DNA of 64,000 nucleotides. Origin: Opitutales bacterium. GTDB taxonomy: Bacteria; Verrucomicrobiota; Verrucomicrobiia; Opitutales; JABSRG01. The DNA is taken from positions 32,001-96,000 of the forward strand of contig JBMYOQ010000006.1 of the NCBI GenBank assembly GCA_049599475.1, written 5' to 3'. The position numbers and the translations under genes were made by a program. This document shows positions 9,093-56,587 of the stretch, in pieces; the first letter of the stretch is position 1; every line of letters starts with the position of its first letter. Under the pieces are notes generated by a model. That model was not told the origin of the DNA. It did not search any database and worked only from the letters and a program-made list of their open reading frames with translations.

Positions 9093-9122
9093 GCCTGCTT
9101 TTATGGTTTCTCGAAAGTAATA

Positions 9123-9417
9123 TCGTAAACCTGGGAGGGGCGTCCTCAATGTCCGCTGCGATCGGCTCTGCGGAGGCTAAGGACAGCGGACGGAGGCTTG
9201 CCGGAGATGGCGCAGTAATAACGCTGCATTTAGGATGGCGTCATCGGTAGCGGCCGATCTCCGAGCGGCCGAATGCGGGGTATTAGCTGGGCGAAATTGC
9301 TGTCTTCAACCGCTCGGAGATCGGTTGCTACCCCCATTTCTTCTCTAAAGGCAGCGCCTCTCGAGGACAGCGTCTCTCTCGGAAAACTCACGATTATAAA
9401 TTGAGCTCAATGCGAAC
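9123..9417. mobile_element. Composite non-autonomous repeat, copy A (left arm, 170-bp core 9191-9360 containing a REP doublet, right arm)
   Basis: Every segment matches 31705-32144: the core in direct orientation, the arms in reverse complement. Confidence 0.85.
9246..9332. repeat. GTAG-type REP doublet (REPIN-like)
   Basis: GGTAGCGGCCGATCTCCGAGCGG ... CCGCTCGGAGATCGGTTGCTACC inverted pair. Confidence 0.85.
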
Positions 9418-9457
9418 GGGCTTTTAAGACAGCGAGCAAATTAGGACAGATATGAAT

Positions 9458-19668: not shown

Positions 19669-19784
19669 GGTAGCGCCCACTCTCCGAGCGGGCGGCTCTG
19701 TGAATAATGTCCTGTCTGTATCACGGATTTGCATTGCCATCCCCGGCATCGCCTCCGTCCACCGCTCGGAGAGCGGCGGCTACC
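19669..19784. repeat. GTAG-type REP doublet (REPIN-like) between convergent genes
   Basis: GGTAGCGCCCACTCTCCGAGCGG ... CCGCTCGGAGAGCGGCGGCTACC. Confidence 0.8.
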
Positions 19785-31593: not shown

Positions 31594-31674
31594 GGTAGGG
31601 CGAACTGTCTCGGTGATATATTGCAGGTGAGTCTAGTCTGCCGTGGCTTGCTCACCAAGACGGTTCGCCCTACC
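31594..31674. repeat. GTAG-type REP doublet, second sequence class
   Basis: GGTAGGGCGAACTGTCTCGGTGA ... TCACCAAGACGGTTCGCCCTACC. Confidence 0.8.
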
Positions 31675-31704
31675 GATATGTTTTGTACCTATTCTTAAAA
31701 GTGT

Positions 31705-32144
31705 GTTCGCATTGAGCTCAAATTATAATCGTGAGTTTTCCGGGAGGGACGCTGTCCTCGACGGAGGCTTGCCGGAGATGGCGCAGCAATGGCGCTGCGA
31801 TTAGGATGATGTCATCGGTAGCGGCCGATCTCCGAGCGGCCGAATGCTGCGTATCAGCTGGGCGAAATTGCTGTCTTCAACCGCTCGGAGATCGGTTGCT
31901 ACCCCATTTCTTCTCTAAGGGCAGCGCCATCTCCGCTGTCCTCAGCGTCCGCAGAGCCGATCGCAGCGAGAGGCTGTCTCAAAAGAGGTGGCGCCGGATC
32001 ACCGTATCCGGCATGAGCGCGTTAGCCCAAACGACTAGTGCGACTAAGGTCGAGTCATGCTCACTCGGTGAGCGCGCGCTACCAAAAATAGGGATTTATC
32101 CGAGTTTTGAGACAACCTGGGCATTGTCCCTCCCAGGTTTACGA
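31705..32144. mobile_element. Composite non-autonomous repeat, copy B (arms reversed relative to copy A, core 31762-31931, nested MITE)
   Basis: Segment-by-segment match to 9123-9417; contains a REP doublet at 31817-31903. Confidence 0.85.
31971..32118. mobile_element. 148-bp MITE-like insert with 14-bp terminal inverted repeats
   Basis: AGGCTGTCTCAAAA ... TTTTGAGACAACCT (13/14 match); absent from the homologous arm of copy A. Confidence 0.75.
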
Positions 32145-32296
32145 AATTAATTTTGCGAAAGAGTCTAAAGCTGCCGGAGCCTACAAGAATTGGTATTTGT
32201 TCACCGGGGGTCTGTAAGGCTCGTTAAATTATGTAGCACGCTAGAGAAAGGCACCGTTCTGTATTTGAGTCCTTGCTCGATGTATTTGTTGGGTTG

Positions 32297-49741: not shown

Positions 49742-49778
49742 ATATGACCCCGAGCATCAAATGTTCCGGTTTTTGAAA

Positions 49779-49938
49779 GGATGAGGGATGAAGGATGAAG
49801 GATGAAGGATGAAGGATGAACTGATTTTCTTTGAGGCTCTTACGCGTCAACATCTATTCGGGAAAATACACCTGTTTCACATCCAGCAATTACGCTTTCA
49901 TCCTTCATCCCTCATCCTTCATCCCTCATCCTTCATCC
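49779..49938. repeat. Two inverted heptamer arrays, (GGATGAR)6 and (YTCATCC)6
   Basis: Six units at 49779-49820 and six reverse-complement units at 49897-49938. Confidence 0.95.
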
Positions 49939-49981
49939 TTTTACTACCCTGGCACATCGACTGCTTTTTGAGCGCGACCCA

Positions 49982-56119: not shown

Positions 56120-56587
56120 GTGTCAAACTCGTTGCCGAATAGGAAATCGCTGAATCATGGTATCTCGCGTTGGGTGCCAGATGGAGGACATTTCTTCATC
56201 ACGATTAACTGTGCGGAACGCCGGGAAAACCAATTATGCCTCAACCGAATTTCTGCGCAATTGAAGGAAAGTATCCAGATTCGCGTGAATGCAGGAGAGT
56301 GGGATGTGCGCTTATGGCTCCTGATGCCCGATCATATTCATGCGATCATGTCCTTTGCTCCGTGGGTCTCCATGAGCCAGTCGATCACCGATTGGAAGAG
56401 CTATACTGCTAGGACTCTGGGGATCAACTGGCAGCAGGGCTTCTTTGATGATCGCTTGCGCAGTGATCGGGAGACGGAGGATAAAGAGTGTTATGTGGTT
56501 TTGAATCCGGTTCGAGCGGCTCTATGCGATTACCCATCTGAATGGAAGTTTCGTTGGAGTTCTTTCGATTTCGAAGTGAACCGCTAG
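56120..56587 (+). CDS. REP-associated tyrosine transposase (RAYT; Y1/HUH family)
   Basis: FFITIN, HUH motif MPDHIH, WQQGFFD, catalytic Tyr in YVVLNPVRA, and P.EW. Confidence 0.88.
   Translation: MSNSLPNRKSLNHGISRWVPDGGHFFITINCAERRENQLCLNRISAQLKESIQIRVNAGEWDVRLWLLMPDHIHAIMSFAPWVSMSQSITDWKSYTARTLGINWQQGFFDDRLRSDRETEDKECYVVLNPVRAALCDYPSEWKFRWSSFDFEVNR

Follow-up and report, generated by a model that had tools for sequence, protein, structure and literature searches.

The two composite repeats of the window (the whole 64,000-nucleotide stretch analysed here, G000:C6:32001-96000, from an assembly of 4.68 Mb in 146 contigs that is 96.6% complete) are two worn members of a genome-wide family, and the flip of the segment they share likely reflects ordinary transposon insertion followed by reshuffling among copies, not a dedicated genetic switch. 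The mobile cassette is likely a 146-bp IS4-type MITE, M', that lies inside the shared segment S and was moved by a DDE transposase, and the arms around it are two GGAG-type REPs in a doublet, the hairpin of which likely served as target. The names M', X, REP1, REP2 and REP3 are coined in the present analysis.

The flip of S relative to its arms, reported in an earlier note on this sequence, is real: S lies on the same strand in copy A (9191-9360) and copy B (31762-31931) and aligns end to end (92.9% over 168 nt, BLAST), with armR (9361-9429 against 31693-31761, 91%) and armL (9154-9190 against 31932-31968, 95%; 9107-9139 against 32128-32160, 88%) inverted between the copies. S is of equal length in both, as claimed, but through two compensating 1-nt indels, and the reading of B as reversed armR, S and reversed armL stands with the correction that its armL holds an additional repeat of a different family (element X, Table 1). 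The GTAG doublet ascribed to S is present, and the core hairpin is much stronger than in shuffled sequence (z -4.6). The direct repeat noticed on both sides of S is there too, its length being 10 bp, and the composites extend beyond the limits first given, to 9107-9429 and 31693-32160. The claim that GA/TC is the sole inverted homology at the junctions holds for A and B but not for intact family members, which have 45-bp inverted repeats; GA/TC stands alone in A and B because each lacks one 27-nt outer unit, present on the left side only in A and on the right side only in B. An Rfam scan of the window gave no match.

Table 1. Parts of the two composite copies, and the RAYT gene, in window coordinates
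Feature	Position	Strand	Remark
Copy A, whole composite: outer shell, REP3 doublet and inserted module	9107..9429	+	
Left REP3, GGAG-type hairpin	9133..9154	+	5 nt shorter than in other copies
Left 10-bp direct repeat of A, likely target-site duplication within right REP3	9179..9188	+	matches 9363-9372 at 9/10; C11, an empty site, has one copy
27-nt REP-like outer unit (REP2)	9189..9215	+	REP2 + TIR = 45-bp long end
M' of A, 146-bp likely IS4-type MITE	9216..9362	+	TIR 9216-9233, core 9234-9344, TIR 9345-9362 (final 4 nt altered)
GTAG REP doublet (REP1) within core	9246..9332	+	arms 9246-9273, 9305-9332
Right 10-bp direct repeat of A	9363..9372	+	
Remainder of right REP3 and right shell (armR)	9373..9429	+	
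Copy B, whole composite, arms on minus strand	31693..32160	-	
10-bp direct repeat of B, armR side	31750..31759	-	10/10 with 31934-31943
27-nt outer unit (REP2) of B, armR side	31760..31786	+	
M' of B	31787..31933	+	TIR 31787-31804, core 31805-31914, altered TIR 31915-31933; opposite to A relative to arms
10-bp direct repeat of B, armL side	31934..31943	-	
Element X: separate 148-bp repeat, inverted ends, own REP doublet, inserted in armL of B	31971..32118		14 near full-length copies in G000
RAYT named in the earlier note	56120..56587	+	no composite part in flanks; probably not the partner

The core matches 51 loci in the assembly. Two intact copies (C12 and C29) display the order left arm, 10-bp repeat, 45-bp inverted repeat, 110-bp core, 45-bp inverted repeat, 10-bp repeat and right arm, each 45-bp end consisting of a 27-nt REP-like unit and an 18-bp inner end, and the module of C12 forms a single hairpin (z -10.6). 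Scripted scoring of the ends adjacent to cores returned 71 ends at 53 loci, some weak ones being probably chance; the target 10-mer adjoins them at 24 of the 53 loci and not at the other 29. Fifteen of these 24 target-abutting loci are A-like and nine B-like, the two ends of a locus never disagreeing, and native short ends meet the target in both orientations and on both sides. The two orientations are therefore a family-wide state and not a property of the A/B pair. The genome-wide count of orientations and empty sites that had been proposed thus yielded both orientations, together with an empty target at C11. Core and arms are independent repeats, which is one half of what the earlier note named as refuting it, but their junctions are fixed and not random. 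No homologous or orthologous copy was found in one genome of the same genus (86% complete) or in six of the same family, so that these relatives provide no empty, filled or flipped orthologue for comparison. In G000 the end pattern matches 35 times, and among 200 other same-order genomes five have a single match each; the exact core pattern had no match among metagenome contigs.

What is conserved from copy to copy is a unit inside S that runs from one terminal inverted repeat (TIR) to the other, with the direct repeats outside it, and not the REP doublet on its own as would be expected of a REPIN. This unit, M', measures 146 bp in total with 18-bp TIRs around a short core, occurs also away from the arms, is present in many copies and holds no transposase gene, the open reading frame over B being without a Pfam match. 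Direct repeats that have the character of target-site duplications flank it at independent loci: among 16 hand-picked elements, in-register repeats of at least 8/10 (chance 0.0009 each) were found at five of six non-target loci (C26 with 10/10; C3, C34, C60 and C81 with 8/10), the sixth, C17, showing one only with 1-nt slack. When 29 end pairs were scanned less strictly, C56 (8/10) and C15 (11/11, around a different REP doublet) joined these loci, and C47 had no direct repeat. Members of the IS4 subgroup carry the end signature -AATR--------WTW---- and generate direct repeats of 10-13 bp (Table 1 of PMC2266710), and the portion of that paper available to us also describes a strong target preference (De Palmenaer et al. 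2008, PMC2266710). Five of the six M' ends tested match the signature, and the direct repeats are 10 bp long, once 11 bp. M' thus resembles the subgroup in end signature, direct-repeat range and strong target preference, and differs from it in its length of 146 bp, the lack of a transposase, the REP doublet inside and the lack of any autonomous partner found in the assembly. Insertion by an IS110/IS1111-type element was considered since such elements target REPs; the 10-bp repeats and true terminal repeats argue against it.

The 27-nt outer unit, which sits between direct repeat and TIR, is not accounted for by simple insertion. That it is a free REP singlet inserted in other repeats is unsupported, none of five loci having an uninterrupted counterpart. 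The same unit followed by CAAT, without a core, also occurs at G000:C8:76297, C2:47274, C25:165 and C58:28797, where no uninterrupted counterpart was found.

Taken without the module, the arms form the REP3 doublet. An empty composite with one copy of the 10-mer occurs at C11, free REP3 doublets at five loci, and C16 has the module in the other REP3, at the equivalent position. Within REP3 targets the direct repeats are well preserved in A (9/10), B (10/10), C12 (9/10), C29 (8/10), C109 (8/10) and C63 (9/9), and poor in C44 (6/10), C58 (5/10) and C40 (2/10). Since 10-bp direct repeats also surround M' at unrelated loci, the repeat on both sides of S in A and B is likely a target-site duplication. 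One of the two readings offered earlier, a cassette that enters a second repeat at one site in both orientations, is accordingly supported by the 15 and 9 loci, by C11 and by the duplications at unrelated sites, with the amendment that the cassette is M' within S and not S itself.

In search of a transposase we screened G000 for the IS4 family and found none: PF13006 gave no match, tblastn with four IS4 proteins no match at E<=1, and a protein search none. PF01609 had two matches, neither beside an M' end, PF14294 none and PF05598 two. A family search that made no use of the M' ends detected IS4 elements in 2 of 301 same-order genomes (loci L181-L207 of G187 and G086). They are multi-copy, and both ends were found in 24 of the 27 loci examined; the IS4 end of G187 is identical to intact M' ends at 13-14 of 18 positions. 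The best direct repeat is 11 bp in 23 of 24 copies, 13 of them perfect, against mostly 10 bp for M', and the target, a palindromic repeat, is entered both ways (14 versus 9 copies and one ambiguous, read by eye). In some copies (L190, L201) the flanks are inverted and not direct, the arrangement expected from recombination between copies inserted in opposite orientations. The target is reminiscent of the GGGGWSAS motif that the accessible part of PMC3733652 describes for repeats next to tyrosine transposases. Scanning metagenome contigs with the M' end pattern gave at least 119 matches, and among the 80 fetched, two mark the left end of 1515-bp elements that encode IS4 transposases above cut-off with a YREK motif; their ends are 15-16/18 identical to M', an identity that is partly by construction as the pattern came from the M' end. 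A 149-bp metagenome element (L080) shares the 18-bp ends but not the interior, and its flanks show no convincing direct repeat (6/11).

We consider it probable that M', carrying REP1 as cargo, owes its spread to an old burst of activity of an IS4-type transposase, which favoured the 10-bp REP3 site and inserted either way round, and that the filled targets then multiplied and recombined. An IS4-family transposase acting in trans would have moved the gene-less M', with its 18-bp inverted ends and the REP doublet inside; it would have cut a fixed 10-bp site in the REP3 hairpin, and M' would have gone in either way round. The filled targets would then have multiplied, with copies reshuffled by exchange across inverted repeats, and no dedicated invertase would be required. 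The IS4 nature of the mover is deduced from ends and direct repeats, and the activity appears old, the copies being 4-10% apart and the repeats decayed.

Insertion would not be the only source of mixed orientations, and we infer a further exchange of cores, within the inverted repeats or at the end of M'. In the intact copies the core lies either way between the same pair of outer alleles. The outer marker tracks the arm (12/0 versus 3/6, p 0.0015) and not the core (p 1.0), and the inner marker tracks the core (7/1 versus 4/16, p 0.0019) and not the arm (p 0.67); these Fisher tests cover 21 and 28 hand-labelled ends of related copies, so the p values are overstated, and C40, C1 and C82 are left out of the 21. 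Ordinary recombination and template switching are candidate routes of such exchange. The tree of 23 M' copies, computed without C72 and truncated copies, is star-like; 17 of its 20 inner branches are open and none is starred, and it therefore cannot count flips.

An alternative, the bolder reading of the earlier note, which we regard as unlikely, is that A and B are the two states of an invertible segment: the 174-bp module would be flipped or re-inserted as a whole, precisely between the 10-bp repeats, by an enzyme specific for its ends, either a RAYT or a recombinase encoded elsewhere. The modules of A and B are indeed reverse complements between the direct repeats to within two 1-nt indels, and one-long-end modules exist in both orientations (A, C7, C109 and C40 against B and C27). 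Both A and B have an altered, TC-type end and a rare C at position 25 of the long end (2 of 22 ends; 3 of 41 matches); this shared rare base together with the similar end fits one module flipped whole. However, A and B have no common non-consensus allele inside M' and do not group in the star-like tree (distance 0.103), B being nearest to C109 (0.036); the core alleles of A are shared with C72. The armR-type allele beside armL in A would also fit a flip, but this arrangement occurs at 3 of the 15 ends, and A does not stand out by it. In length the A end equals that of C5b and C109, two copies with one long end, and slipped pairing of the altered end with the outer unit is feasible, which makes a parallel templated change of the A and B ends possible. 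The similar worn ends of A and B thus reflect either shared descent or parallel slippage.

The surroundings also argue against a whole-module flip. The genes neighbouring A and B encode a solute-binding protein, an AraC-type regulator, a flavodoxin-like protein and YjeF, which bears out the earlier remark that no recombinase is adjacent. A and B both lie between convergent genes, and no promoter-like site was found in A; across 22 loci the gene context is tandem at 12, convergent at 9 and divergent at one. In invertible switches of phase variation, a segment between inverted repeats is found in two orientations. Inverted repeats flank the segment here as well, 45 bp long in C12 and C29 and reduced in A and B to worn 18-bp TIRs, but the two orientations occupy different loci, the genes flanking A and B include no linked site-specific recombinase, and no change of promoter or coding sequence by the flip was found at A or B. 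The suggestion of an invertible segment applies in a weak sense, in that cores were exchanged across inverted repeats; neither a recombinase among the genes flanking A and B nor a promoter-like site in A was found, nor, within what contigs can show, dimorphism at one locus.

It is very unlikely, in our judgement, that RAYT-driven nesting of REPINs explains the structure by itself, with the direct repeats arising from RAYT chemistry or slippage and the IS4-like ends being coincidental. The idea is not without ground: the three nested layers are REP-like, the RAYT-like gene at G000:C7 (79.9 bits against a RAYT cut-off of 80) has a REP3 doublet behind it and a composite copy in its flanks, and the RAYT at G000:C12 (93.1 bits) is flanked by REPs within 5 mismatches of REP1. 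The 10-bp repeats, however, adjoin the 18-bp ends at unrelated sites, 12-14 nt outside the GTAG motifs; the ends match those of real IS4 elements; and RAYT cleavage, as described in the available text of PMC8266576, consists of single-strand cuts at CT or CA and not of staggered duplications. Twelve Y1_Tnp matches occur in G000, and only that at C7, whose relatives amount to two 42% matches, has clear composite matches in its flanks. Around the RAYT of the window (80.2 bits), which the earlier note put forward as a candidate mover, these repeats are absent over about 700 bp upstream and about 1400 bp downstream, and it is probably not the partner of the composite. A Y1 transposase family of about 340 aa occurs at G000:C5, C11, C59, C145 and C9, four of them near-identical, with none of these repeats adjoining.

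That the opposite orientation is a short-read mis-join at a repeat is hardly credible: public contigs break inside both copies with none spanning either locus, and the inner junction of B was not seen as a joint in them, but contigs from two studies include the right junction of A (joint 31759-31927; depth 24 in X1, 3.3 in X2), both orientations recur over 24 loci whose ends agree, and the S segments of A and B are 7% different. The sample X1 may be the source sample, X3, with a small share, was left out, and public contigs are of a kind that cannot show rare flips.

Insertion of IS elements into REPs has precedent. Insertion sequences that target REPs include ISRm22 (of the IS4 family), ISPsy8, ISPpu9/10 and IS1397 (Tobes and Pareja 2006, PMC1525189); according to the portion of that paper available, ISRm22 and ISPsy8 enter REPs at fixed positions, with direct repeats and on either strand, and ISRm22 shows hybrid flanks through recombination between copies. 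M' shares with them the fixed position within the REP, the direct repeats, the broken REP on either strand and the hybrid flanks; unlike them, it is non-autonomous and has a REP doublet of its own inside, from a REP family other than that of the target. The flip is thus explained by known behaviour, since fixed-site insertion of IS elements into REPs on either strand and reshuffling between copies are already published.

The cargo is another matter. The REP1 and REP3 doublets have the architecture of REPINs, with two inverted REPs, the tetranucleotide outside and a long hairpin, and in the parts available of Bertels and Rainey (2011, PMC3116915) and PMC3337134 REPINs are likewise extragenic, multi-copy hairpins of an inverted REP doublet in genomes with RAYT genes; the unit moved here is larger than the doublet and is bounded by TIRs and direct repeats. 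GTAG dimers regularly wrapped in a second palindromic sequence are described by Di Nocera et al. (2013, PMC3733652), in whose accessible text the wrapper is treated as a target and given neither a target duplication nor an IS family; the wrapper here, in contrast, has IS4-type ends and moved together with its cargo. The doublet was clearly copied together with the IS4-type ends, the target duplications being the footprints. Of 132 REP1-like matches, 53 sit 5-22 nt inside an IS4-type end (chance 0.4%), and other REP doublets are enclosed by the same ends. REP doublets riding as cargo of IS4-type ends may be new: the literature searched, which leaves most subscription papers outside and was available in part, gave no description of them. 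It is tempting to hypothesize, as a tentative possibility, that most of the spread of REP doublets in this lineage took place as cargo between IS4-type MITE ends, through DDE chemistry and without need of a RAYT, and that the MITE in turn targets hairpins formed by a different REP family, so that two mobile systems hitch-hike on each other and build four-layer repeats. As the copying mechanism of REPINs is described as still open in the available parts of PMC3116915 and PMC8266576, the cargo arrangement provides REPs with another way to spread, one open to test, and part of what REPIN counts measure in such genomes may be MITE bursts.

Further repeats occur in and around the composites. Element X is likely a second MITE-like carrier of REP doublets; its inverted ends are much like the outer ends of the composite, and several of its copies lie in REP3-like hairpins. 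The composite outer ends themselves (9107-9116/9422-9429 in A; 31693-31700/32151-32160 in B) are loosely inverted and conserved across copies, and the shell may be a MITE around the REP3 doublet. A further GTAG doublet (31594-31674) directly adjoins copy B, and a free REP1-like doublet with a different spacer and no IS4-type ends lies between convergent genes at 19669-19784. Elsewhere in the window, an inverted pair of 7-bp tandem arrays, 76 nt apart, is found between divergent genes (49776-49941), and five 294-bp tandem repeats (1-1476) lie within the open reading frame at 6-1637.
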